From: Nonlabens sp. | GTDB taxonomy: Bacteria > Bacteroidota > Bacteroidia > Flavobacteriales > Flavobacteriaceae | Assembly: GCF_039941875.1 (NCBI RefSeq) | Contig: NZ_JBDVDQ010000016.1 | Span: forward strand, 81,916-145,915 | Length of the DNA: 64,000 nucleotides | Direction: 5' to 3' | Part shown: one piece after another, positions 1,397 to 42,512 of the stretch | Position numbering within the stretch: the first letter of the stretch is position 1 | How the letters are laid out: every line of letters starts with the position of its first letter | The notes under the pieces: generated by a model | Seen by the model: only the letters and a program-made list of their open reading frames with translations | Databases searched by the model: none | What the model was told of the DNA's origin: nothing | Program-made: the position numbers and the translations under genes

Positions 1397-2389
1397 ATGA
1401 AAAAACTGCTATACCTTATAATTCCTATAGTTTTACTAGGCTGTGATGATGGAGATATCATTACTAACGACTTTGATTTTGAAGATGCGAGCGTAGAGGC
1501 TTGTGAACCAACAATCTCTTCTGGTAGTATAAATAATTTTGTTTTTTATAAAAATGAAGACACAAATTTTGAAAGCCTCGTTTTACAAATTTTAACTAGT
1601 GATGATATTCTAAATACAAATGCTACTTACGGTCCTTATGACATATCAAATACTAGTACAACCACATTTGAATACCGTAAATTCGATGCTGCGCCAGGTA
1701 ATGATTATTACTGCAACAGCATACCTCCTAGTTCACCTACAGTAACTGAGGTCTTTAACGCCATAGGTGGAGAAGTAACTATAGAAACATCTACACGTAG
1801 TGATGACGATGATGATGGTATTCTAGCCGAAGATGAAGAAATCGTTTTTGATCTTAATGGAGATATTGATTTTATTGCTAGTCGAGATACCGATGAGGAC
1901 GGCATACCAGACTTCATGGATATAGATGATGACGGTGATAACGTACCTACCAGCCTTGAAGGTGTCGCTTTTAATAGTGACGGGACTATAGACATAGCAA
2001 ATAGTCGAGACACCGATGGTGATGGCAAATTAGACTATAAAGACGCAGACGACGATGGCGATGGAGTCGATACAAAAGACGAAAGTATAGATGGTAATCT
2101 AGACCCAACAGATGATTTTGCCATAGGTGCCACAGTACCTAATTACTTAGTATTCTCTAGCACTCCGGCAGTGGCTAACCCATTGATAGAAGAATACATC
2201 CCACATACCATAGAACGCATCACACAATTGCACATCACAATAGCAGGTCTAACCTTAACTAACGGTAACGTAGAAATCATTGAAGATGATTATGATTTTG
2301 GCAATTATATAAAAGATGCTATTATATTAACTTGTACGCCAGCATTTCCGACAGCTTCACTACCTGTTAATGCTTGTGAATTTGAGTAA
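1397..2389 (+). CDS. Acidic lipoprotein with DxDxDG Ca-binding (thrombospondin type-3-like) repeats
   Basis: Signal peptide MKKLL...LLG-C; repeats DTDEDGIPDFMDIDDDGD and DTDGDGKLDYKDADDDGD; start moved from 1376 to MKKLL. Confidence 0.7.
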   Translation: MKKLLYLIIPIVLLGCDDGDIITNDFDFEDASVEACEPTISSGSINNFVFYKNEDTNFESLVLQILTSDDILNTNATYGPYDISNTSTTTFEYRKFDAAPGNDYYCNSIPPSSPTVTEVFNAIGGEVTIETSTRSDDDDDGILAEDEEIVFDLNGDIDFIASRDTDEDGIPDFMDIDDDGDNVPTSLEGVAFNSDGTIDIANSRDTDGDGKLDYKDADDDGDGVDTKDESIDGNLDPTDDFAIGATVPNYLVFSSTPAVANPLIEEYIPHTIERITQLHITIAGLTLTNGNVEIIEDDYDFGNYIKDAIILTCTPAFPTASLPVNACEFE

Positions 2390-2461
2390 TGATTTAAAAA
2401 TATAATCAGATCTATTTTAGAGTACTGAATTCTTATTTCCTTTAATTAAATTTATCAAGGA

Positions 2462-2992
2462 TTAAGCATTCTGGTGTATGTATATTTCAGTAGCGCCCTT
2501 TCCATATTTTTGATAATCAGCGTCATAAAACTTGACTTGGCTATATCGTTGAAAGAGGTAATTGAGTTCTTCTTTAAGAACTCCTTGCCCTATACCATGT
2601 ATAAAAACCAATTTAGGCACACGATTTTGAATAGCCCATTCTATCTTGTACCTCGCCGTATCTATTTGTAAATTGAGCTTATCATAAGCATCCATACCAC
2701 GTTCTGACTTCACTAATTGATGCACATGTAGATCGATTTCTACAGCAGGAATAAAAGCTGCTTTCTTTCTAGAAACCTGTCTTGCTTTAGATTTCTTAGG
2801 TGCAGGTTCTTCTTTAGGTGTAAAACTTGACACTTTGAATGATCTGTCTAAAATCAACTCACTGGGATGGTAGGTAATTTCTATGTCATCGTCAGTTAAG
2901 ATGGTTATTTGTTCCGCTTTCGCGAAAGCTACCACACCACCAAATTCATCGTCCAGAACAAGCACTCGATCGCCTTTTTTAAATGAATACAT
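2462..2992 (-). CDS. Smr/MutS2 C-terminal domain protein
   Basis: EIDLH, VFIHGIGQGVLK, YGKGATEI Smr motifs. Confidence 0.85.
   Translation of the reverse strand: MYSFKKGDRVLVLDDEFGGVVAFAKAEQITILTDDDIEITYHPSELILDRSFKVSSFTPKEEPAPKKSKARQVSRKKAAFIPAVEIDLHVHQLVKSERGMDAYDKLNLQIDTARYKIEWAIQNRVPKLVFIHGIGQGVLKEELNYLFQRYSQVKFYDADYQKYGKGATEIYIHQNA
2916..2929. repeat. Iterated palindrome GCTTTCGCGAAAGC, copy 1 (in Smr gene, AFAKA)
   Basis: Exact 14-bp match. Confidence 0.9.
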
Positions 2993-2995
2993 GGA

Positions 2996-3202
2996 CTACT
3001 CTTCTTCTTCAGATAAATGATCATCTTTATGAGCAACCCAATGTGTACTAGCACGATATGCGCCGAACATGATTAAAATCACTCCAAAAACCTTAAATAA
3101 TACGTTTGCGTCCTCATTTATAAAGGTATAGAGCAATAAAATTGCACCTACAAATATCACAAAACCGTTGATTAACTGCAAAAAGTTGTTTTTAATCGGC
3201 AT
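2996..3202 (-). CDS. Small two-TM hypothetical membrane protein
   Basis: Two hydrophobic segments; stop 3 nt before the Smr gene start. Confidence 0.7.
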   Translation of the reverse strand: MPIKNNFLQLINGFVIFVGAILLLYTFINEDANVLFKVFGVILIMFGAYRASTHWVAHKDDHLSEEEE

Positions 3203-3279
3203 TTTCTTTATTTAATCTAATTGTTATAACAAATTTATAAACTTATTTAAAAGGTAGTACCATTAGAAGGGATAAATTA

Positions 3280-3287
3280 TATTTTTG
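3280..3287 (+). promoter_or_regulatory. -7 box TATTTTTG upstream of T9SS cargo gene
   Basis: TAnnTTTG match 21 nt before ATG. Confidence 0.55.
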
Positions 3288-3308
3288 TACTGTTAAAGCA
3301 GCGTTATT

Positions 3309-5303
3309 ATGAAAAACATTATAAGCTTATTACTAGTGGGTTTTGCCTTTCAAATGGCAACCGCACAAGTATGGATTAAGGGTGATAATTTTATTTATTC
3401 CAAAGGAACAAACATCTTTGTGAAAAATAAAATTAATCTAGATACAGATTCTAAATTTTACCTTAGAGAAGAAGCACAGTTAATACAAGATGCCGATGTA
3501 CCTAATGAAGGTGATGGTATTATCTCTGTCTTTCAAGAAGGAACCACTAATAGTTACAGTTACAATTACTGGTCTTCTCCAGTAAGTGACGAATCTACTG
3601 GAACTGGTAACACTGGTTTTTTAAACACACAAATTAAATATCCAACCACAGCTGCAGGGACTAATACAGACTACACTATTACTGCTGAAGATTCACAAAT
3701 ACTAGCCTACAGTGTTAGAGATGGAGAGTCTGATGATGCTACTATAGGTGGTAGCCCTTTAAAAATAGCTGGTAGATGGTTATACACTTATGAAAGCGGT
3801 GGTAACCCTGCAACAGGATATGCTGGATGGTCTATTTTTAATGGATCACAAAACACACCTGCCGGTCAAGGTTTTACCATGAAAGGTGTTAATGAAATCG
3901 CTGGAGGATCTGCTAACTACAATGGTGGACAACGTTATGATTTTAGAGGAAGACCTAATAACGGTACAATTGAGATACAAATAGGTAATGATAACGCAAC
4001 TCTTGCCGGTAATCCTTATCCTAGCGCACTAGATTTAAAAAGATTCATACAAGTTAATGCTGAACATACCAGTGGTAATGACGTAAAAATGGATCCATGG
4101 GTTGAATTTTGGGAATCTCAAGTAGAAACCTCTCACCAGCTTACCTCTTACTTAGGTGGTTATGCAAGATACGTGCCTATGGGCTTTACTGCTGGATCTG
4201 AAAACGGTTATGATAACAGTGGTACTTATCTAGAACCTATCTTCAGAAGAACAGATAACGATGGTAATATAATAACCAGTGGTACTACAAACACTTCTGG
4301 TGTAGCAACCCCTCCAGGAACTACCACATCTAACACAGGAACTGGAATTGATGGAAGAAGAAGGTATGCCGCAATAGGCCAAGGTTTCTTTATTTCAAGA
4401 ACGAATACCGCTGTTCCTTTTACTGCCTCATCTTTTGAACAAGCTGCAACTGAATTTATCACGCCTGGTAGCGTTGTACCTAGCGGATTAGGAGAAACTA
4501 TAGAATTCAATAATTCTATGAGAGTCTTTCAAAAAGAAGATGGAAACACATCTGTATTTAAAGCTGCACCAGTTAATGGTAACCCATTAAGTAGTGTTGC
4601 TGCTATTCAAATACCTAAGATGATTATAAACGTAGTGCCTAACGGACTTTATGCTAGACCTCTTAACTTTGCTTTTGATGACAGTACATCACAAGCATAT
4701 GACTATGCATGGGAATCTCCTATATCTGGTAGAGTTGCTACAGATGCTTATATCAAAATAGGTACTGCAGGTGAATACGGTCTCTCTTCTCAAGCATTTG
4801 ATGAGAACATGGCTATTCCTATAGGTGTAGAAGTTGCGAGTTCATTTACTGCTCCTATTGATGTTGAATTTGAATTAGCTTTCTTGATCAACTTTGATCC
4901 TAATGAAGTTTATCTTCATGATAAAACAACAGGAGTTTATCATGATTTAAAAGCTGGAAACAAAACTTTATTAATTGCGCCAGGTCATTATACTGACCGT
5001 TTTGAAGTGACATTTAAAAGCACTTCTGGCACTTTAAGTAATGGACTTGTAGAAGAAACCAACTTTGATATTTTCCAAAACAATGGAAAGAAAGAGTTGA
5101 CGATACTTAATCCTAACTTAGAAGATGTAGCAAACATTTCTTTATATGACCTTGCAGGAAGACAAATCTTCTCTAATAAGCCAGCATCTGCAGAAAGCAG
5201 TTATAGTTTTGAAACAGCATCACTTTCTAGCGCTATTTACATCGCAAAAGTGACTACTGTAAATAATAAAGAAGTAGCTGTTAAGGTGAGTATCTCAAAT
5301 TAA
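3309..5303 (+). CDS. T9SS type A sorting-domain secreted protein
   Basis: Sec signal; GNPYPSALD motif; C-terminal SLYDLAGRQI...LSSAIYIAKV...KV type A CTD. Confidence 0.8.
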   Translation: MKNIISLLLVGFAFQMATAQVWIKGDNFIYSKGTNIFVKNKINLDTDSKFYLREEAQLIQDADVPNEGDGIISVFQEGTTNSYSYNYWSSPVSDESTGTGNTGFLNTQIKYPTTAAGTNTDYTITAEDSQILAYSVRDGESDDATIGGSPLKIAGRWLYTYESGGNPATGYAGWSIFNGSQNTPAGQGFTMKGVNEIAGGSANYNGGQRYDFRGRPNNGTIEIQIGNDNATLAGNPYPSALDLKRFIQVNAEHTSGNDVKMDPWVEFWESQVETSHQLTSYLGGYARYVPMGFTAGSENGYDNSGTYLEPIFRRTDNDGNIITSGTTNTSGVATPPGTTTSNTGTGIDGRRRYAAIGQGFFISRTNTAVPFTASSFEQAATEFITPGSVVPSGLGETIEFNNSMRVFQKEDGNTSVFKAAPVNGNPLSSVAAIQIPKMIINVVPNGLYARPLNFAFDDSTSQAYDYAWESPISGRVATDAYIKIGTAGEYGLSSQAFDENMAIPIGVEVASSFTAPIDVEFELAFLINFDPNEVYLHDKTTGVYHDLKAGNKTLLIAPGHYTDRFEVTFKSTSGTLSNGLVEETNFDIFQNNGKKELTILNPNLEDVANISLYDLAGRQIFSNKPASAESSYSFETASLSSAIYIAKVTTVNNKEVAVKVSISN

Positions 5304-5304
5304 T

Positions 5305-5601
5305 ATGAAATCATTTCTCATAGACGATAGCTGGATGCTACCATGTATGAGTAAACAATTAACGGGAATGGACTGTCCTGGATGTGGAATCCAGCGGTCC
5401 ATTTCTTTTTTACTCAAAGGTGACATCATCGATTCCTTTTTAATGTACCCAGGCCTTTATCCAGGCATGTTTTTATTCTTCTTTCTCATCTTTGATTGGT
5501 TTAAGAATGTAAAACACGGAGAGCAAATTAAACTATGGGCTACTATACTTACTATAGGTACTATTCTCACTAGTTATTTTATCAAAATGGCAATTCATTA
5601 A
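5305..5601 (+). CDS. DUF2752-family membrane protein
   Basis: C-x6-GMDCPGCGIQRS motif plus TM helices. Confidence 0.8.
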   Translation: MKSFLIDDSWMLPCMSKQLTGMDCPGCGIQRSISFLLKGDIIDSFLMYPGLYPGMFLFFFLIFDWFKNVKHGEQIKLWATILTIGTILTSYFIKMAIH

Positions 5602-5662
5602 AAAATATTGTAACATTGTGATTAAATAATCAACTAACTATACATATCAAATTAACCAAATT

Positions 5663-5983
5663 ATGCAAAAATTAAATACAACTCTAGTTTATATACTATC
5701 TATAGCAGGATTCATTTGCTGTTGCTGGTTAGGTGGATTATCAGTTATACCTGCTGCTATCGCCTTTTTTATAGCAAATAAAGAATTAACGAAATACGAA
5801 GCTAACCCTGCAGAATATGCCAACGGTCCAGCTATGAAAACTGCCAAAACTGTTGCGTTGGTAATACTTATCCTATCTGCACTTAACTTCATTTACACTA
5901 TCTATGGTCTTGCAACAACACCATGGGAAGAAGTAATAGCTGGTTACGAAGAAGGTTTTAAATCAAGTGGAGTAGAATTTTAA
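5663..5983 (+). CDS. CCC-motif membrane protein (paralog 1)
   Basis: GFICCCW, two TM segments, AMKTAKTVA. Confidence 0.75.
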   Translation: MQKLNTTLVYILSIAGFICCCWLGGLSVIPAAIAFFIANKELTKYEANPAEYANGPAMKTAKTVALVILILSALNFIYTIYGLATTPWEEVIAGYEEGFKSSGVEF

Positions 5984-5995
5984 ATAGAAACAATC

Positions 5996-6358
5996 ATGCA
6001 AAAATTAAATACAACTCTAGTTTATATTCTATCAGTAATAGGATTTTTATGCTGCTGTTTTTATGGTGTAGGTACTATTGCAGCAATAATAGCTATAGTG
6101 GTAGCTAGCAAAGAATTGAATAAATACAACGCAAATCCACAACAGTTTGTGAATGGTAAAGCTATGAAAACTGCTAAAACAGTGGCTATCATTTCTCTAG
6201 TTATCTCATTAATAGGACTTGCTCTAATTGCGTGGTTCTATTTTAACCAATGTGAATTCTACACATGGTACTTAGATACATTTGGAGACCAACCAGGTGT
6301 TACAGAAGAGCAACTAGCTCCTATTTATGAAGCTATGGAAGAAGCTGGATGTATCTAA
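5996..6358 (+). CDS. CCC-motif membrane protein (paralog 2)
   Basis: GFLCCCF, AMKTAKTVA; N-terminus identical to paralog 1. Confidence 0.75.
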   Translation: MQKLNTTLVYILSVIGFLCCCFYGVGTIAAIIAIVVASKELNKYNANPQQFVNGKAMKTAKTVAIISLVISLIGLALIAWFYFNQCEFYTWYLDTFGDQPGVTEEQLAPIYEAMEEAGCI

Positions 6359-6377
6359 AAAATACATTATAAATATT

Positions 6378-6410
6378 AAAAAAGGGAAAGCTAACGCTTT
6401 CCCTTTTTTT
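6378..6410. terminator. Bidirectional intrinsic terminator between convergent membrane-protein modules
   Basis: AAAAAAGGGAAAGC-TAAC-GCTTTCCCTTTTTT. Confidence 0.8.
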
Positions 6411-6445
6411 TGTTTTGAAACTAGATATAAGATAGTTTTAGAATT

Positions 6446-6826
6446 CTATAGATTACGTACGATTGTGAAAACGACAACGAGAGCAAAGACAGATAACACC
6501 AGATACTTATTATTGATCCATCTTCTAAATCTATGATCACGTAGACCGGGAATCCATTCAAAAACTCCTACTAAAACTCCAAACGGTAACAACACAAATA
6601 GTAAAGGGTTGTAATTATATGCCTTTATAAAATTACCATTTAACAAAGAATGTACGGCACGTTGAGAACCACAGCCTGGACAGTCATATCCTGTCACATA
6701 TTTACTAGGACATTGTGGGTAAAAGCCTACTTCTTCAGGATTATAATTTTTGAACAGAAAAAAAGCGGCACCAAATAAAATTATGGTACCGCATATAATA
6801 AGTATTTGCTTATAATTTTTGATCAT
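6446..6826 (-). CDS. DUF2752-family membrane protein
   Basis: CPSKYVTGYDCPGCGSQRA motif, AYNYNPL, TM helices. Confidence 0.8.
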   Translation of the reverse strand: MIKNYKQILIICGTIILFGAAFFLFKNYNPEEVGFYPQCPSKYVTGYDCPGCGSQRAVHSLLNGNFIKAYNYNPLLFVLLPFGVLVGVFEWIPGLRDHRFRRWINNKYLVLSVFALVVVFTIVRNL

Positions 6827-7155
6827 TAATAACCTCCATCAGCGATAGCTCCTAGTACACCCATGAAGAAAGCTAATATGATAACCACAAGACCAGTGAC
6901 GACAGCAGCTATCACCCAGTTTTTTGCGGTATTACTAGCTTTTATAGCTCCTTGAAAATCTCCTACTCTATGTTTACTTTCTACTTGAGAACTATAAATA
7001 ATAGCAATAATTCCAAAAACCTGACAACATAGAATAGTAACAATAATAGATTCTGCTAACCAGGTTTTAGGTGCAGGGCCATAATTATTACCTTGATTAA
7101 ACTGTTGTTGTTGAAATTGGTTTTGTGGTTGGTTAGATTGATCCATTCTATTCAA
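6826..7155 (-). CDS. CD225/dispanin (IFITM-like) membrane protein
   Basis: LCC[11 protein letters not shown]7-GDFQGA-x3-S-x2-AK signature; Q/N-rich N-terminus. Confidence 0.8.
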
Positions 7156-8425
7156 ATTCTTTTAAAGTATTAATAATAATTGCAATACACTCATCTAACT
7201 GTTCTTTAGTCATTACAAGTGGTGGCGCAAATCTAATAATATTTCCGTGAGTAGGTTTTGCTAGCAATCCATTATCTCTTAACCTTAAACAAATATTCCA
7301 TGCCGTCTTACTATCTTCTGTATCATTGATAACTATAGCATTTAAAAGACCTTTACCTCTTACTAGAGTTACCGTGTCTGTAGTTTCAATATACTTATTA
7401 ATCTCAGCTCTAAAGTAACTACCTAATGCACGAGCATTTTGAATTAATTTTTCATCCTTAACCACTTCAAGAGCAGCCATTGCAACTGCTGCTGCAACTG
7501 GATTACCACCAAAAGTAGAACCATGCTGTCCAGGCTTAATAACATTCATCACCTCATTGTCTGCAAGTACTGCACTTACAGGGTAAGCACCACCAGATAA
7601 TGCTTTACCTAATATCAACATATCAGGACGTGCATAAGTTGCCTCCTGGCGCTCACAATGCGCATCACAACTACAGTCACCACATACAGCTAGTAAACCA
7701 CCAGTTCTTGCGATACCAGTTTGTATCTCATCTGCTATAAATAAAGCATTGTATTTATTACAAAGATCGCGCGATGCTCTCATGAAGTCATCATTAGGAG
7801 TAAAAACTCCGGCCTCACCCTGTATAGGCTCTACTAGAAAACCAGCTACATTTTCTTCTTGCAGTGCTTTTTCAAGAGCCGCAGTATCGTTGTAAGGTAT
7901 TTTTATAAATCCAGGTGTATAAGGTCCAAAGTTCTTACGAGCATCTTCGTCATTAGAAAAAGAGATAATTGTAGTCGTACGACCATGAAAATTATTTTCA
8001 CATACTATAATTTTTGCAGCATGCTCCTCTACTCCTTTTTTCTCATAAGCCCATTTACGTGCTATTTTTATAGCAGTCTCTACCGCTTCAGCACCAGTAT
8101 TCATAGGTAGTACCTTATCAAACTGAAAATACTCTGTCATGTACTTTTCGTACTGACCTAATTTATCATTATGAAATGCTCTGGAAGTAAGCGTTAATGT
8201 TTGCGCTTGCTCATTCATCGCATTAACGATAGCAGGATGACAGTGTCCCTGATTCACCGCACTATAAGCACTTAAAAAATCATAGTATCGCTTTCCATCC
8301 ACATCCCACACATAAACACCTTCTCCTTTTTCTAATACTACAGGTAAGGGATGGTAATTATGCGCTCCATGTTTATCTTCTAGATCTATAAAATGTTGTG
8401 CTTTACTTTCGTTATTCATGCTCAT
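7148..8425 (-). CDS. rocD: Ornithine--oxo-acid aminotransferase
   Basis: [49 protein letters not shown]. Confidence 0.93.
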
Positions 8426-8582
8426 TGCAGTGCTATTTTTATCGTTTGCCGCAATTTAATCATTTCGATTACAGAATTAAAATTAAAACATCTAAGAATT
8501 TGTCAAATTCGCAAGAATCCACCCTTAACTTAAATGCCTAAAGATTCTATAAAAACAAGGAATTACGTTAATTTTACCGCCT

Positions 8583-10001
8583 ATGTCAAAACGAAGAAGA
8601 AGAGCTCAAAAGACCTTTGAAAATGTACCAGTAGTAGATGCAGGTGCAAGAGGTAAAAGTGTTGCAAAAACAGAAGATGGAGAAGTAATTTTCCTAACAG
8701 ACGCTGTCCCAGGAGATGTGGTAAACATCCAGACTTTTAAGAAAAAGAAATCTTTTTATGAAGGTCGTGTTACAGAATTTATTGAATTAAGTGACAGACG
8801 TGCGCAGCCTGTTTGTAAACACTTCAATACTTGTGGAGGTTGTAAATGGCAACACATGACTTATGAAAGTCAATTGTATTTTAAGCAAAAAGAAGTTGCA
8901 GAGAACCTGAGAAGAATAGGTCACCTAGACTTACCAGAAATGACTCCTATCGCAGGGTCCTCTGAGCAATACCACTATCGAAATAAGATGGAATTCAGCT
9001 TTTCTGCAAACCGATGGTTAACACTAGAAGAAATTCAAAGTGATGTAGAAATAGAAGATAAAAAAGCCCTAGGTTTTCATATTCCAGGAATGTGGGATAA
9101 GATTTTACACTTAGACGAGTGTCATCTACATCCTCAAATAGGAGAAGATATTAGATTGAGTGTGCACGCTTTCGCGAAAGCGGAAAACATATCCTACTTT
9201 AACCCAAGAGAAAAAACAGGAACATTAAGAACATTAATGTTACGTATGTCCTCTACTGGTGAGAACATGGTAGTGATTCAGTTTTTTCAAGATAACGAGG
9301 CACAAAGAATCGCTTTATTAGATCATTTAAAGGAAAACTTTCCACAAATAACGTCATTGCAGTACATTATAAATGAAAAAGCAAACGACACGATTTATGA
9401 TCAAGATGTAATATGCTATAATGGCCGCGATCATATTTTTGAAGAAATGGAAGGTTTGCAATTTAAAATTAATGCAAAATCTTTTTATCAGACTAATAGT
9501 AAACAGGCTTATGAACTGTATAAAATAACTAGAGATTTTGCAGGCTTATCTGGAGAAGAACTGGTTTATGACCTTTATACAGGAACAGGAACTATCGCGC
9601 AATTTGTTGCTAAAAAAGCAAAGCATGTCGTAGGAATAGAAGCTATACCTGTAGCTATAGAAGATGCTAAAACAAATGCTTTACACAACGGTATAGAAAA
9701 CACGACATTCTTTGCCGGTGATATGAAAGACGTATTTACTCAAGAATTTATTGACGAGCACGGACAGCCAGACATTATCATAACAGACCCACCTAGGGAC
9801 GGTATGCACAAAGATGTGGTAGCACAACTTATTAAATTAAGTGCACAACGCATAGTCTATGTAAGTTGTAACAGTGCAACACAAGCACGTGATCTTGCGT
9901 TGCTAGATGAGAAATACTCCATAGTAAAGGTACAACCAGTAGATATGTTCCCACAGACACATCACGTAGAAAACGTAGTTTTACTAGAACTTAAAGGCTA
10001 G
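8583..10001 (+). CDS. rlmD: 23S rRNA (uracil-1939-C5)-methyltransferase
   Basis: TRAM N-terminus, C..CGGC Fe-S motif, DLYTGTG, DPPRDG, YVSCN, DMFPQTHHVE. Confidence 0.9.
   Translation: MSKRRRRAQKTFENVPVVDAGARGKSVAKTEDGEVIFLTDAVPGDVVNIQTFKKKKSFYEGRVTEFIELSDRRAQPVCKHFNTCGGCKWQHMTYESQLYFKQKEVAENLRRIGHLDLPEMTPIAGSSEQYHYRNKMEFSFSANRWLTLEEIQSDVEIEDKKALGFHIPGMWDKILHLDECHLHPQIGEDIRLSVHAFAKAENISYFNPREKTGTLRTLMLRMSSTGENMVVIQFFQDNEAQRIALLDHLKENFPQITSLQYIINEKANDTIYDQDVICYNGRDHIFEEMEGLQFKINAKSFYQTNSKQAYELYKITRDFAGLSGEELVYDLYTGTGTIAQFVAKKAKHVVGIEAIPVAIEDAKTNALHNGIENTTFFAGDMKDVFTQEFIDEHGQPDIIITDPPRDGMHKDVVAQLIKLSAQRIVYVSCNSATQARDLALLDEKYSIVKVQPVDMFPQTHHVENVVLLELKG
9168..9181. repeat. Iterated palindrome copy 2 (in rlmD, AFAKA)
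   Basis: CGCTTTCGCGAAAGCG at 9167-9182. Confidence 0.9.
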
Positions 10002-10013
10002 AAAATTCAAATT

Positions 10014-10550
10014 ATGAAAAACATTTTCACAATAATAATCTTGCTCTTTATTACAGTCTCCTGTAAAAAAGAGCAAGTTGAAGTTACTAAAGACATAGAG
10101 ATACTCAGCTTTTCTAGTGACGATGCATCTACATTTATTGATGAAATTGTAGCAAATGCAAATGGTAAGGTAATTTATATAGACAACTGGGCAACCTGGT
10201 GCGCACCTTGCAAAGCAGAGTTTAAAGCAGCATCACCGGCGTTACATGAAAAATTTAAGGAAGATGTAGAATTTATCTACCTCTGCCACGCAAGTAAGGA
10301 AGCTACCTATTTACCTTCTATAGAAGAGTATAATATAAAAGGAAAACATTATTTTCTTACAGACGAGCAAGGCTCTATTGTACAACAGCAGTTGAACCTA
10401 GTAGGATTCCCGACGTATACCATTTATGATAAAAAAGGAAATCAGGTACTATCTGATTATATACACAGACCTAGTCATGGACCTACCTCAGACATTTTAA
10501 CAAAGTTGATCAATGACGAAGTTGTAAACCTGACTAATAGCACTCCATAA
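10014..10550 (+). CDS. TlpA-like thioredoxin-fold lipoprotein
   Basis: Lipobox VS-C; WATWCAPCK (CxxC); GFPTY. Confidence 0.8.
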   Translation: MKNIFTIIILLFITVSCKKEQVEVTKDIEILSFSSDDASTFIDEIVANANGKVIYIDNWATWCAPCKAEFKAASPALHEKFKEDVEFIYLCHASKEATYLPSIEEYNIKGKHYFLTDEQGSIVQQQLNLVGFPTYTIYDKKGNQVLSDYIHRPSHGPTSDILTKLINDEVVNLTNSTP

Positions 10551-10554
10551 TTCT

Positions 10555-11070
10555 ATGAAAAGATTTTCTAGCGTTTTTTTAATCCTAATCGCTGCCATTT
10601 TATTTAATGGTTGTGAAAAGGATGATTTGTGTACAACAGACCAGGCAGCCACACCTAGGTTAGTTATTGAATTTAGAGATGTGCTCAACCCTCTTAATTT
10701 TAAGGCTGTAGACCAAATTCAAGTACAAGAAATAGGCAGCAGCGAGCTTGCACCACTAGATAGTGACGATTCTACGACACTTACAGATGTAGAAACCATT
10801 TCTATACCTTTACTTACAGATGGTAATAGAACGAGTTATGATTTTATCTTTACTGAAGATGGTATTGCAAATTCTGATAACATAGATTTTAATTATATAC
10901 TAGAAGAAGAATATGTAAGTAGAGCTTGCGGTTTTAGAATTATATACAATAATCTTGTTGCTATTCTTACTCCAGAAACTAGCGGTACACAATGGATCAA
11001 CAGGACCGTAATCGTAGAAAATAATATAACTAATGATACAGAAGACATACATGTTCAAATACTTCATTAG
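10555..11070 (+). CDS. DUF6452-like lipoprotein
   Basis: Lipobox NG-C then EKDD; TPRLVIEF and YVSRACG motifs. Confidence 0.65.
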   Translation: MKRFSSVFLILIAAILFNGCEKDDLCTTDQAATPRLVIEFRDVLNPLNFKAVDQIQVQEIGSSELAPLDSDDSTTLTDVETISIPLLTDGNRTSYDFIFTEDGIANSDNIDFNYILEEEYVSRACGFRIIYNNLVAILTPETSGTQWINRTVIVENNITNDTEDIHVQILH

Positions 11071-38775: not shown

Positions 38776-38901
38776 ACAAATAAAGAATAATTACTACTTA
38801 TACAAAACCTCTTCTTAACAACTGAAATCTGTCTTAGGATTGTGTGTTCTAAAAACATTCCTCTTAATATTATATACACTACAAATGTTATATTGAACAA
38901 A

Positions 38902-38931
38902 TGCGCATTACAAACGCGCGCGACGTGGAGG
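38902..38931 (+). repeat. GC-rich REP-like hairpin at 3' end of immunity gene 3
   Basis: TGCGCATTACAAACGCGCGCGACGTGGAGG in very AT-rich context. Confidence 0.5.
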
Positions 38932-38936
38932 ATTCT

Positions 38937-39491
38937 TCAATATTCCATTTCAATGCGGTTTATTAACAAGTCATTGACAATCTTAACTTCTGGATGAAGC
39001 TCAATTTTAAAAATTGTTACATCTTTAAAGTACTTTTCCTCTATTGAATTATAATAGCTTCTTTCTACCGGTAATAAAACAGGACTGTACTCCTTGTTAT
39101 GCATCAAATTTAATGTATGATAATTTAACCATTTATCTATAGGCTCATGAATTATGAAATAACTTTTTTCAAAAGATTTCATTGAAATGGGATCTAATTC
39201 ATTAAAATAATTATCAGAAATAATTATGTCATTAAACTTAATCTTCATTTTATTAATAATAATGGTATCATTTAGGTTAAAAACATCTCTAGGTACAAAG
39301 CGAATAGGTCCATTTAACGATACTGAATTAGGAAACTCAAAAAAAGTCTTAATAGTTAAATGATCTTTTGGTTTGATGTTTAATCTACTAATAACTTCTT
39401 CATATACAGCATTTTTATCATTCTCTTGAGTATTACCTTTTTTAAAACAAAATAACAATACAATAAAAATGAAAAATTTTATTTTAATCAT
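38937..39491 (-). CDS. Exported hypothetical protein, candidate immunity protein (cassette 3)
   Basis: Signal peptide; ATGA 4-nt overlap with upstream toxin tip. Confidence 0.6.
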   Translation of the reverse strand: MIKIKFFIFIVLLFCFKKGNTQENDKNAVYEEVISRLNIKPKDHLTIKTFFEFPNSVSLNGPIRFVPRDVFNLNDTIIINKMKIKFNDIIISDNYFNELDPISMKSFEKSYFIIHEPIDKWLNYHTLNLMHNKEYSPVLLPVERSYYNSIEEKYFKDVTIFKIELHPEVKIVNDLLINRIEMEY

Positions 39492-40036
39492 AACTTTTTA
39501 TTAATTTTTGAAATTGCTTCACTTGGTCTAAATGCTGAAGGATTATCAGTACCCTTATTAAAATGAAGAAAACCTGATCTATAATCTGAACGATGCGGCA
39601 GTTCCATTTCACCTCTAAAAATATTTATTAAATCAACTGTATCTCCAGTTTGTCGTCCATTTACTGAACTTGGATCTCTCAAACCTCCAACAGCATGTCC
39701 AATAAATTCATGCTCTACTAATCTTCCAAGATTAAACATTCTTTTTGAAAAATTTCCAGTCTCTGAAACCCAACTTCCTAATGCATTTTGTCCATCAAAA
39801 TCAGCTAAATCAACGTAGGCTGTTTTAGTTTCCATATTAGTTGAACCGTACCCTATAGGATTACTAACGTTAACGGTCTGACCTGCAACTGTGACAGAAC
39901 TATCTTCTGATCCAATATTATAGCCAAATACTAATTTCCCTTCAGAAGTACTTCCATTCTTTAATTCCCCTGCTGGCGCTCGTGCTAGTTTGCAACTAGT
40001 ACCGTACAGAGTGAAGACATAAATATAATAAATCAT
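39488..40036 (-). pseudogene. Orphan toxin C-terminal fragment with HExxGH metallopeptidase-like motif
   Basis: VEHEFIGHA; first ~24 codons come from the direct repeat. Confidence 0.5.
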
Positions 40037-40123
40037 AGAAATCTTTAGACCTCAAAGGTTTCTTATTTTCTTTTAAAAATTATTCTATTTTATTCAAACT
40101 CGGTATTCCCTAGAAACGAGTAC
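39965..40123. repeat. Direct repeat copy A (~160 bp)
   Basis: 29/30 identity at 39969-39998 vs 42260-42289 and 51/52 at 40017-40068 vs 42315-42366. Confidence 0.9.
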
Positions 40124-40160
40124 GAGCGTTTGCGCAGTAAATCTATAATTAATTTCATAA

Positions 40161-40190
40161 AAAAGGAAAGTTGTTTCTAACTTTCCTTTT
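40161..40190. terminator. Terminator hairpin after JAB-toxin immunity gene
   Basis: AAAAGGAAAGTT-GTTTCT-AACTTTCCTTTT. Confidence 0.75.
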
Positions 40191-40206
40191 CCATGATTGT
40201 GCATAT

Positions 40207-40246
40207 CACGAGCGAGACGCTTGCGCCAGTTGGCCAACTAGGGAGG
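40207..40246 (+). repeat. GC-rich REP-like hairpin at 3' end of immunity gene 2
   Basis: CACGAGCG-AGA-CGCTTGCG-CCAG...GGGAGG, ending 2 nt from the stop codon. Confidence 0.55.
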
Positions 40247-40248
40247 TT

Positions 40249-40737
40249 TTAATCGCATTTTCTAATCTGAGAATCGACTAAATGGTAACAATTTTGAGTA
40301 TCCTTTTTAATAAGCCAGGCAGAAATATCTCTAAAAGAAATAACAGATTTACCTACGTAATTACTCAAATCTATATTAAAATCAGTTTTAAATAATAAAT
40401 CGTTTTGTTTATTGATTACTACAAATACAACATTATTGTTAATGACGGTTGAAAGTATGGCTTTTTCCTGATAATTATTCAATTCCATCAGATTAGCAAT
40501 TTTACCTTGAGTGACTAAAATGTAATCATTTTCCTTAAAATCAACATACCAATTAAACTTGTTTTTATTGTTTTGACAGGTATCCTTTTTACCAATAATG
40601 TTCTCCAATTCTTTTATCAATTGTTCGTTCTTAAAAAAAACTAGATTCGAGTGTGTTGTTGAATTTTCCTTTTGAGCATAACAGAATAAAGTACAGAAGA
40701 AAATTAATACAAATATTTTGAAATTGAATGATCTCAT
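40249..40737 (-). CDS. Exported hypothetical protein, candidate immunity to JAB toxin
   Basis: Sec signal (…FCYA-Q); ATGA overlap with toxin stop. Confidence 0.65.
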   Translation of the reverse strand: MRSFNFKIFVLIFFCTLFCYAQKENSTTHSNLVFFKNEQLIKELENIIGKKDTCQNNKNKFNWYVDFKENDYILVTQGKIANLMELNNYQEKAILSTVINNNVVFVVINKQNDLLFKTDFNIDLSNYVGKSVISFRDISAWLIKKDTQNCYHLVDSQIRKCD

Positions 40738-41654
40738 AATTTAAGTTTTTTTTGTGCTGGAGCATCTATTATTATGGTATTTAATTCAAAACTTACTGAG
40801 TTCTTATCAAAGTCCTTATACTCATTTATAAACGGAGAATATATTTCAAATCTAGGTTTGAAACCTAGTCTTTTTTCGAAGATTCCTGCCGAAGAAATAT
40901 CCAATGGTGATGGGGCTAAAAAAGGATCAGGATGAGAATGTACATGATGTAATAATATTTTATGCCTTTTGGATAAAATATTTATGCTATACTCTGCATT
41001 TGATTCAAAAGATGTGCTGATATATTTAATATCTGAAAACCAATTTGAATAAGAGTGTTCACTGTCCGAATTATCTGTAATAAATTCAAACAAAGCTTTG
41101 TTATCTTTTACTTTAGTAGTTTCTATATTTTGTATTTCCCTAATTGTTCCCTCATCATCAATATGTGTTGTATTTTCAATTTTATCTAAAACACCTTTCT
41201 CAACATTTATTGAATTTCCTGTTTCTTTACCTTCATAATCTAAAGCAATAAGTTTATCATGCTTATCATTTGTAGCCCTAATAAATGCAATTTTACCATT
41301 ATCATCTATACCATAATCATCTTGTACTACTTCAGGAGCCATCCCAGTAGGATCGGTATACATCACAGGATTATTAAACGCATAAGCATACGACGACCAT
41401 TCAGGCATTTTTTCCGCCAGTGGATCAACACTCATCCATATACTTAAACTAGGGTCATAATAACGTGCTCCATAATAATACATACCGGTCTCGCTGTCCA
41501 GTTCTTTACCGTTAAATTTGAACTCGGTCTGGTAATATGATATTGAGGTTTGCTCTGCCATGGTCTCTCCAAAGGGTAAGTTAAGAAAAAACTGGTACAT
41601 ATTACCGTTTACGTCTGTTAACGCATTTGTGGTACCTAAATGGTAAATAGGTTT
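40734..41654 (-). pseudogene. Headless Rhs-core fragment with C-terminal JAB/JAMM (Tox-JAB1-like) toxin domain
   Basis: In-frame upstream of the ATG at 41600: HLGTTNALTDVNGN; then PFGE, FNGKELDSETGMYYYGARYYDP, NNPVMYTDPTG, HSHP-x6-S-x2-D. Confidence 0.85.
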
Positions 41655-42119
41655 TTAAAAGCTACAACTGCTAATTTGGTTTTTTAGGAAGTTTATTTCC
41701 TTTGATTCATCTTTTACTATTGTAAAATTGAACCATGTATCATCCTCGCCTTGATAATAGTCTATTTGATCTGACTTGTACTGCTTTGAATAGACTATTG
41801 AAGCTTCTGGAACACCACTCGAAAAAGCTTTCATAGGCAACGCAACTATACGTTTACCCTTACTAACAAAAGATATAGACTCAGAATTTAAGTTCTTAAA
41901 CCTATCCTCATCTTCTTTTGTTTTCAGCTTCACATAAAGCATAGTCTCATCGCGGCATATTTGATCAATTTCAAAAATTATTTCATCCTGATTCGTAGAA
42001 ACAGTAAGTTTTAATGAGCTATTTTCGAATGACTGACAAGAGACAATACTAACGCTTATAGTTATGATATTTAGGCTCAAGATTAACGCTCGTACCGAAC
42101 ATATTCGTTGTAGTACCAT
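41655..42119 (-). CDS. Hypothetical lipoprotein, candidate immunity protein (cassette 1)
   Basis: Hydrophobic stretch ending IVS-C; overlaps upstream short ORF; start uncertain. Confidence 0.55.
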   Translation of the reverse strand: MVLQRICSVRALILSLNIITISVSIVSCQSFENSSLKLTVSTNQDEIIFEIDQICRDETMLYVKLKTKEDEDRFKNLNSESISFVSKGKRIVALPMKAFSSGVPEASIVYSKQYKSDQIDYYQGEDDTWFNFTIVKDESKEINFLKNQISSCSF

Positions 42120-42318
42120 ATAATTTAGTTATTTCAGATAAAGTAAAAACTTGGGGTTTTACATATATACCATTTTTTGAATATAAATAAGTAATTCCAT
42201 CTTGACTTCTTCCGTAAAACACAGCGGAATTGGTATTTCCAAATATCACATTCGTTTCTCCTGCTGGCGCTTGTGCTAGTTTGCAACTACTACCATTACC
42301 GTACAGAGTTATAAACAT
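42049..42318 (-). pseudogene. Short orphan toxin-tip-like fragment fused to repeat-encoded peptide
   Basis: First ~21 codons come from direct repeat B; position parallels cassette 3. Confidence 0.35.
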
Positions 42319-42419
42319 AAATATAATAAATCATAGAAATCTTTAGACTTCAAAGGTTTCTTATTTATTTTTAAATTATTCTTATCTACTCCAACTATGT
42401 ACTCGATAGAAACGAGCAC
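42256..42419. repeat. Direct repeat copy B (~160 bp)
   Basis: See copy A. Confidence 0.9.
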
Positions 42420-42512
42420 CAGAGGTTTTGTAAACTTGCGATAGTAGTTTTATTGATTAATTAAAAGATTCTTAATTGTCAAAGAGAACAACGCCTAAAA
42501 CGAATAGAAAAT

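Follow-up and report, generated by a model that had tools for sequence, protein, structure and literature searches.

Probable orphaned REP doublets beside decayed Rhs toxin genes in Nonlabens sp. and linkage of the corresponding RAYT family to Rhs loci

We analysed a 64,000-nucleotide stretch of a Nonlabens sp. genome (the window), corresponding to C16:81916-145915 in an assembly of 3.17 Mb and 24 contigs (this genome, G000). In a toxin/immunity island of this window, two similar repeats, A (39965-40123) and B (42256-42419), each run into the remnant of a toxin gene, and a previous sequence-only reading had proposed that they capture such genes and keep them translatable. Our results make it very probable that A and B are orphaned doublets of a repetitive extragenic palindromic (REP) element, that their ends are the limits of the repeated unit lying beside decayed toxin genes, and that the start codon found in frame with each remnant is accidental. 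In related genomes, the same element flanks genes of a REP-associated tyrosine transposase (RAYT) often located just behind Rhs toxin/immunity modules.

Direct reading of the sequence and a repeat search of the window both recovered the two repeats as first described, in three aligned blocks: 39965-40003 with 42256-42294 (92% identity), 40017-40077 with 42315-42375 (95%), and 40072-40131 with 42368-42427 (73%). Whole-genome blastn joined them in a gapped alignment of 169 nt at 83% identity, and no other pair in the 3.17 Mb was as long. The near-identity of A and B in two blocks, already noticed before, was confirmed. On the minus strand, both contain the hairpin GTACTAGTT-GCA-AACTAGCAC, the left side of which reads GTAGTAGTT... 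in B, followed by (G/A)AGCGCCAGCAGG(G/A)GAA, where the similarity between A and B stops; the minus-strand terminus of both repeats is thus ...GCGCCAGCAGG(G/A)GAA. An internal hairpin, GAAATCTTT/AAAGGTTTC, was also found where it had been proposed. Comparison of the repeat with the genome using nhmmer gave E-values of 1e-10 to 1e-23, far beyond chance, and detected inverted element copies at the far ends, ~40083-40138(+) for A and 42381-42448(+) for B, which account for the decayed hairpins of opposite orientation seen there and make A and B back-to-back doublets. In all likelihood, they represent two paralogous REPIN-like doublets (a REPIN being a pair of inverted REPs), each composed of two inverted REP-type copies with their 5' ends facing. 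Their type of spacer occurs only in A, B and two syntenic doublets of the relative G007, so that A and B are an old local duplicate and not members of a proliferating population.

The element itself is a 75-95-nt hairpin unit with 13-15 copies in G000 according to an nhmmer profile. Its consensus is TTTTACTCATGCTCGGTAC-YNGTT-ACA-AACNR-GCACTAGC-(~16 nt)-GMGCCAGCAGGRG, the ~16 nt being missing from short forms such as A and B. The stems covary among the G000 copies (CTAGTT/AACTAG, CCAGTT/AACTGG, CTCGTT/AACGAG), and a comparison of 56 distinct copies, taken from many genera, showed pairing of the 8-bp stem in 97.8% of cells, with compensatory changes in 6 of the 8 pairs, a result equalled by none of 500 shuffles; an A.C mismatch in the stem is nearly invariant. 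The outer end is conserved as well (...GCCAGCAGGRGAA), and the hairpin foot is GGTAC, GGCAC or GCCAC, with GTAG only in copy B, compared with the conserved 5' tetranucleotide GT[AG]G of REPs. RNAalifold applied to 14 G000 copies supported the central hairpin only and no longer fold, and single-sequence folds were no better than those of shuffled sequences (z -0.8 to -1.8). Rfam searches at permissive E-values, run on this part of the window and on five further loci with the element, yielded only chance-level matches to terminator-containing leaders and none to a known RNA family. The copies are scattered over at least six loci of G000, often 0-5 nt past stop codons, and the REPIN layout of two inverted REPs with a short spacer is seen in A, B and C14:382969-383192, as well as in syntenic REPIN-type doublets of G007. 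In a survey of 25 genomes of the genus, seven carried the element. A DNA search in G024 found at least 17 matches, a lower bound given that the same search recovered only 8 of the ~15 copies in G000. The earlier description of a non-autonomous element resembling a REP doublet is supported. A protein-coding nature was rejected because of the stops present in all frames of some other copies, and the idea that the doublet spacer is a deleted RAYT locus because of the RAYT flanks, which match only the short 5' extension of the element.

The enzyme associated with this family was found in relatives. In G016 and G024, inverted elements bracket a 185-aa open reading frame (ORF) in the arrangement <-ORF->. 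Its product matches Pfam Y1_Tnp (27.3 bits, cut-off 23) and the NCBIfam equivalog NF047646, REP-associated tyrosine transposase (82.9 bits, cut-off 80), and it possesses the motifs (S)HVH, WQ and YIHNNP; these motifs, the length and the phylum fit the TnpA_REP subclass 2.6. Genes of this RAYT family occur at 546 or more loci in Flavobacteriaceae, that number having been confirmed among the first 600 pattern matches, and we computed statistics on 79 fetched Flavobacteriaceae loci from many genera. Among these, a REP(-) copy lies within 200 nt upstream of the RAYT in 42, a REP(+) copy within 200 nt downstream in 28, and both in 20. The element is therefore probably the cognate repeat of a Flavobacteriaceae RAYT of subclass 2.6 encoded in relatives. 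Copies beside RAYT genes share the terminus CAGCAGGG(G)AA and, since A and B end in the same way, the single base at which both had been seen to break corresponds to the natural outer end of the element. RAYTs are described as single-copy, multi-copy cases being unusual; here, at least two copies are present in each of G016, G024, G005, G051 and G054. At L024 (G016:C1:1395680-1398875), L022 (G024:C36) and L054 (Flavivirga jejuensis), two identical or near-identical RAYT copies are separated by 1.5-2.6 kb; each is flanked by REPs of its own, and small lipoprotein genes are interleaved, and G024:C32 contains tandem units made of a REP and a RAYT 5' fragment at ~300 nt spacing.

No cognate RAYT was found in G000, which leaves its element copies orphaned. 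The link to an HUH/RAYT enzyme suggested by the sequence-only reading consequently holds for the family, tied to a RAYT in relatives, and fails for this genome. Two candidates, both Y1_Tnp hits, were rejected. One is a truncated IS200-type fragment (C16:207.8 kb) with no adjacent element. The other is a RAYT-like gene (G000:C4:36504-37064; L007 1372-1932) that is distant (25% identity) and also lacks an adjacent element. It encodes 186 aa with motifs HFHLV and YVHCNP, scores 56.6 bits against NF047646, below the cut-off, and has no recognisable flanking repeat of either family, that is, of the studied element or of a high-copy, REP-like and unrelated family represented by the perfect 16-nt palindrome CGCTTTCGCGAAAGCG, which has 581 copies in the 3.17 Mb, mostly beside intergenic terminator-like hairpins.

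Across Flavobacteriaceae, we observed a strong linkage between this RAYT family and Rhs toxin/immunity loci. Using a small hidden Markov model of Rhs core ends, we detected such an end in 30 of the 79 RAYT loci; 28 of these have it on the same strand as the RAYT and 1.07-2.4 kb upstream of it (median 1.7 kb). These loci are arranged as [Rhs tip][immunity][REP][RAYT][REP], sometimes repeated. With two core ends per 3.17 Mb in G000, co-location by chance would be well below 2%, orthologous loci not being collapsed in this estimate. In the literature that we searched, no paper linked RAYTs to Rhs or to toxin/immunity arrays.

The claim that the repeats keep captured DNA translatable was examined at the element ends. 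Both repeats do open an ORF through SCKLA(R/Q)APAGE, as previously noticed, namely 39488-40036 (182 aa) and 42049-42318 (89 aa), and they do so from different repeat ATGs: an indel in B makes the first ATG run into a stop (MIYYIYVYNSVR*), such that the second is used. At the four homologous junctions of G000 and G007, the ATG frame is fused in two, both in G000; in G007, one frame stops after 35 residues and the other junction precedes a gene with its own start. In the G016 copies, the same ATG meets a stop inside the hairpin and the frame is closed. Among 14 tabulated G000 copies, nine face the 3' end of a convergent gene and five precede a gene start. As far as the translation claim is concerned, the situation that the sequence-only reading had named as its refutation, random sequence in random frames behind other copies, is largely the one observed. 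The fused toxin pieces, moreover, are cut at arbitrary mid-domain points. The proposed maintenance of translatability was not supported by this comparison, and the in-frame ATG looks accidental.

As comparison with their homologues shows, the two ORFs downstream of the repeats are remnants of 5'-truncated toxin tips, each followed by an intact presumed immunity gene. The 182-aa ORF (39488..40036, minus strand) consists of 24 repeat-encoded residues and a 5'-truncated HExxH toxin tip (HEFIGH). Its homology starts at residue ~22-30 and extends to the C-termini of ~320-aa orphans and of proteins of 1529, 2157 and 3364 aa, of which the first (P0018) has an Rhs-type core-end motif, YYPFGL. All inspected homologues have at least 50 extra toxin-domain residues upstream, and the ORF lacks ~50-70 N-terminal residues of this domain. 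It is followed by a presumed immunity protein of 184 aa (38937..39491, minus), the hydrophobic N-terminal part of which was interpreted as a signal peptide. This protein shares 29% identity (E 8e-9) with the ORF located behind the closest toxin homologue, P0002 (L120). Likewise, the 89-aa ORF (42049..42318, minus) joins a repeat-encoded start to the ~58 C-terminal residues that are left of an Rhs toxin tip of ~200 residues, found on Rhs ends in G005 and G047, and is devoid of the region that holds the conserved Cys of its homologues. The presumed immunity protein that follows it, lipoprotein-like and of 154 aa (41655..42119, minus), shares 28% identity (E 6e-10) with the ORF behind the homologous toxin in G005 (L027). 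Neither the two truncated toxin domains nor their full-length homologues received a Pfam or NCBIfam name, and a suspected relationship with Tox-MPTase2 was not supported.

Comparison with relatives showed where homology between species stops. Both doublets are also present at the syntenic locus of G007; in the two genomes together, all four doublet junctions have their break at one and the same base, and each has a different right flank. At the acpH-side border of another hotspot, acpH-ompA, homology between G000 and G007 stops right after CAGCAGG, and at the aspC-side border of the trkH-aspC hotspot homology between G000 and G024 stops at the element outer end, the G000 copy being degenerate there (GCGCCGTAAAG for GCGCCAGCAGG). 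Inter-species homology thus breaks at the element end in three hotspots. Four G000 cassettes are bracketed by inward-pointing elements, several with an element end 0-5 nt from a stop codon, and G005 has three tandem [tip + immunity + REP] units with one element each, all in the same orientation. The hotspot of the window, between a CHU_C gene and a DUF192-like gene, is empty in five genomes; G024 has one element there and no cassette, G016 a single lipoprotein gene located 5' to the element, and G002 three Rhs-tip cassettes and no element. Inside the G000 island, there are also cassette borders free of elements, at 41600-41655 and just upstream of 40737. Accordingly, the recurrent junction between conserved and variable DNA that had been interpreted as a site-specific breakpoint is real; the capture of toxin/immunity DNA at this point is unproven, and the G002 cassettes do without the element.

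Some of these loci displayed additional features. At the G002 hotspot (L128, G002:C1:614000-628500, 1681-8929), the N-terminus MYQFFLNLPFGETMAEQ of window ORF 40734-41600 recurs in the three cassettes, which are interspersed with two small ORFs of 114 and 91 aa ('MTGVMSFLVNLKFMPKRAHHNYTVYILTNK', GIY-YIG-like by eye) without any REP. G007 (L025 7572-8323) keeps a 162-aa immunity-like gene, with the JAB-type Rhs toxin gone and a 145-aa lipoprotein gene in its place; the breakpoint is situated 20 nt upstream of the start of the immunity gene and does not coincide with a repeat. In L020 (G005:C1), two copies of a 730-nt, mostly non-coding segment (7669-8398 and 10011-10738, 93% identical) precede two successive orphan toxin tips and enter their shared start FFLKKCADYYPYGMLLNNRHG, forming a conserved inter-cassette spacer distinct from the REP. 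At the trkH-aspC hotspot, G000 has a gene for a 593-aa secreted protein with a signal-like N-terminus between inward-pointing elements (G000:C3:573417-575421, L004), while G005 and G024 have toxin/immunity cassettes, RelE/ParE-like small genes and more elements.

If A and B are orphaned doublets, the sequence beyond each element end would be whatever the element abuts, and the repeats would offer portable homology at which recombination and deletion could take place in an island with rapid turnover. Truncations and cassette swaps might then derive from recombination or deletion between element copies, or from rare RAYT action in ancestors. Several points weigh against this explanation. Mobility in G000 cannot be current without a RAYT, and a copy number as low as ~15 is unlike that of classical REPIN populations. 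Simple insertion also fails, since the missing toxin 5' parts are not found across the doublets and an extra deletion or recombination has to be assumed. Finally, the exact homology breaks at several independent borders and the Rhs linkage exceed what would be expected from a passive passenger. These last features would agree with a more active role of the enzyme, in which the RAYT, an HUH nuclease, would cut the outer REP end after CAGCAGG on folded single-stranded DNA (ssDNA) and would excise, insert or swap toxin-tip/immunity cassettes at a few hotspots. The single break base shared by the four G000/G007 junctions with their four right flanks, the borders of two other hotspots that also break right after CAGCAGG, the four bracketed G000 cassettes with element ends close to stop codons, the three tandem G005 units and the 28 of 79 RAYT loci placed 1.07-2.4 kb downstream of a same-strand Rhs core end all go in this direction. 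We nevertheless consider it quite unlikely, given the missing RAYT in G000, the three element-free Rhs-tip cassettes in G002, the element-free borders at 41600-41655 and just upstream of 40737, the variable gene on the 5' side of the element in G016, the toxin pieces cut at arbitrary mid-domain points and the fact that recombination between repeat copies yields the same junctions. It is similarly improbable that these elements are more than passengers and reflect a dedicated ssDNA machinery tied to Rhs arrays, a counterpart of integrons and rAID by which interbacterial immunity would be acquired. From the integron-like, RAYT-driven capture initially envisaged, the REP/RAYT family and the recurrent junctions remain; capture itself is unproven, and repeat recombination explains the same junctions.

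The doublets may also have been kept mainly as cis-regulatory modules, in which case the AT-rich spacer would provide the immunity genes with a promoter or leader, while the inverted copy behind the preceding gene would form a 3' stem-loop. Compatible with their being orphaned REPs, this explanation seems unlikely as the main reason for their presence. Terminator-like hairpins precede both doublets (42544-42516 and 40196-40155), so that the cassettes would need their own promoter and the doublet is the only non-coding DNA available to hold it; for this reason, we think that the doublets probably also contain a promoter for the downstream immunity genes. Elements are, in addition, often placed 0-5 nt after stop codons, and some enterobacterial REPs have been shown to act as a 3' stem-loop, as mRNA end or stabiliser. 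However, no sigma-70-like promoter was found in the doublets, by a scan that does not model the Bacteroidetes promoter type, and the antisense strand shows no U-run behind the hairpin. Upstream core homology is a normal common feature of orphan Rhs modules, one of which is located between A and B; this raised the question of whether the repeat is just a conserved piece of an rhs gene or of a longer insertion sequence (IS). This is extremely improbable: other copies are non-coding, some with stops in all frames, the repeat has no Rhs-core similarity and does not overlap the two core ends of the genome, and the element flanks a RAYT instead of a DDE transposase. The possibility, which the sequence-only reading itself had put forward as fatal to its proposal, is thus contradicted.

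The orphaned doublets could be delineated in the window as follows. Element A is a short form (39965..40044, minus; nhmmer E 9e-14) with its outer 3' end, TTCCCCTGCTGG on the plus strand, at 39965, a hairpin at 39982-40002 and the ATG at 40036 within the 5' extension. An AT-rich spacer without strand assignment (40045..40082), which contains the hairpin GAAATCTTT/AAAGGTTTC, separates it from its inverted partner A_far (40083..40138, plus; E 1.6e-3), with a decayed hairpin and facing the 3' end of gene 40249-40737. Next to it, a terminator-like segment (40139..40204, minus), with a strong terminator-like hairpin and a T-run (40196-40155, minus) downstream of that gene, represents ~65-90 nt without counterpart in the G007 orthologue and, relative to G007, splits the partner element of doublet A. 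The 3'-terminal element piece identified by eye beyond it (CACGAGCG...GCGCCAGTTGG CCAACTAGGGAGG; 40205..40247, plus) ends 2 nt from the stop of 40249-40737 and is joined to the A_far hairpin in G007. Element B, also a short form (42256..42342, minus; E 3e-8), has its outer end at 42256, a hairpin at 42273-42293 with a changed left arm (GTAG) and the used ATG at 42318. Its inverted partner B_far (42381..42448, plus; E 6e-12) is a long form that faces the CHU_C gene and has orthologous single copies in G007, G024 and G016. A tentative degenerate element (38897..38932, plus), seen by eye and undetected by nhmmer, has a hairpin GCGCATT-ACA-AACGCGC with the loop typical of the family, TTACAAAC, followed by GCGACGTGGAGG, and ends 5 nt from the stop of 38937-39491. 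The two degenerate pieces, 38897-38932 and 40205-40247, cap the stop codons of two immunity-like genes.

The island, composed of orphan Rhs tips and immunity genes, is located between a CHU_C gene of type IX secretion system (T9SS) type and the DUF192-like gene, and comprises six co-directional genes (38937-42318) with a G+C content of 30.7%, versus 34.8% for the window. Between the A and B cassettes is an orphan Rhs tip (40734..41600, minus) with a core end (TIGR03696, 84.8 bits) and a JAB-like toxin (Toxin-JAB1, E 1e-4), accompanied by its partner gene for a 162-aa immunity-like protein (40249..40737, minus), the DNA of which is 97.7% identical to that of G007 (L025 7798-8323). This tip keeps the Rhs core-end homology, whereas the 182- and 89-aa tips, the same kind of protein, lack a core end. 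Only two Rhs core ends exist in the whole genome, neither overlapping the repeat, and no full-length Rhs gene was found in G000. Cassette A was found only in G000 when searched across the genus. The ORFs located between 29.6 and 50.3 kb have housekeeping functions (Glu/Leu dehydrogenase, ABC transporter, M14 peptidase, AhpC/TSA, Lgt, DUF192-like, CHU_C, SecDF and Mdh). Among them, we detected no intI integrase or attI, and no XerD-like tyrosine recombinase was found in the locus. The window also contains 13 copies of the 12-nt core, CTTTCGCGAAAG, of the high-copy palindrome family mentioned above, at 2917, 9169, 14508, 19520, 24762, 29511, 33249, 36574, 38758, 42573, 49169, 54386 and 61120.

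Taken alone, this locus is ordinary, with orphaned REP doublets beside decayed toxin genes. REP/RAYT systems are common and their function is nevertheless debated, and how cassettes are gained and lost in orphan toxin/immunity islands is open beyond the recombinase-associated arrays of gut Bacteroidales. A RAYT behind Rhs modules in about one third of the 79 loci, together with element ends at conserved/variable switches in three hotspots, makes the question testable. Should the enzyme act on these ends, this would give RAYTs a concrete role and reveal a second, mechanistically different route of immunity-gene acquisition; if it does not, the elements would still be markers, and probably recombination substrates, of such islands.

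An integron-like acquisition of immunity genes has a precedent in the literature, in the rAID-1 arrays of Bacteroidales, which consist of orphan immunity genes with repetitive intergenic DNA 'reminiscent of integrons', headed 5' by a XerD-like tyrosine recombinase, with low G+C and a horizontal origin (Ross et al. 2019, bioRxiv 10.1101/471110). The window resembles them in its co-directional genes, low G+C and repeats A and B, and differs in that the locus lacks a recombinase and has, as repeats, inverted pairs of RAYT-type hairpins. In integrons, attC sites occur one per cassette, all in the same direction, beside intI and attI. They have in common with our element that structured imperfect palindromes lie at cassette borders, that conservation is higher for structure than for sequence, and that ssDNA folding is plausible. 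Among the differences, the element here has a conserved sequence and there is no integrase; the window copies, in addition, are inverted pairs bracketing cassettes, and copies occur at six or more loci of the genome. Orphan rhs-CT/rhsI arrays, reportedly described by Poole et al. in 2011 and Koskiniemi et al. in 2014, are said to consist of promoter-less tips with immunity genes, downstream of a main rhs gene or without one. ORF 40734-41600 is of this kind and keeps the core-end homology used for tip switching; the two repeat-adjacent fragments, by contrast, have no core homology and are cut within the toxin domain, and the genome has no full-length Rhs. The IS200/IS605 family (IS608, ISDra2) shares the Y1 HUH enzyme, as well as imperfect hairpins in which a mismatch is conserved and which only one strand presumably presents for recognition, yet its members have left and right ends on the same strand and move as a unit, in contrast with the inverted and mostly gene-free copies observed here.

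The closest system is that of REP/REPIN-RAYT. TnpA_REP subclass 2.6 (Quentin et al. 2018, PMC6006769) is equated in the table of that work with group 5 of Bertels et al. 2017 (PMC5581495), and its genes have on their sides 'atypical' secondary structures, of which copies occur at other places in the genome (PMC6006769). The common features are the intergenic hairpin repeats, the inverted copies bracketing a ~180-aa Y1 HUH transposase, the NH[LIV]H-like, WQ and YIH[QN]NP motifs, the inverted doublets and, for subclass 2.6, the restriction to Bacteroidetes. On the other hand, the unit described here is 75-95 nt long and has ~15 copies, compared with tens to hundreds per genome, the RAYT is multi-copy in some genomes (G016, G024, Flavivirga jejuensis) and missing from G000, and it is systematically found just behind Rhs toxin/immunity modules. 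The system is thus of a known kind, the REP/REPIN-RAYT of Bacteroidetes subclass 2.6, here in a variant whose units are long, whose copies are few and which is linked to Rhs arrays.

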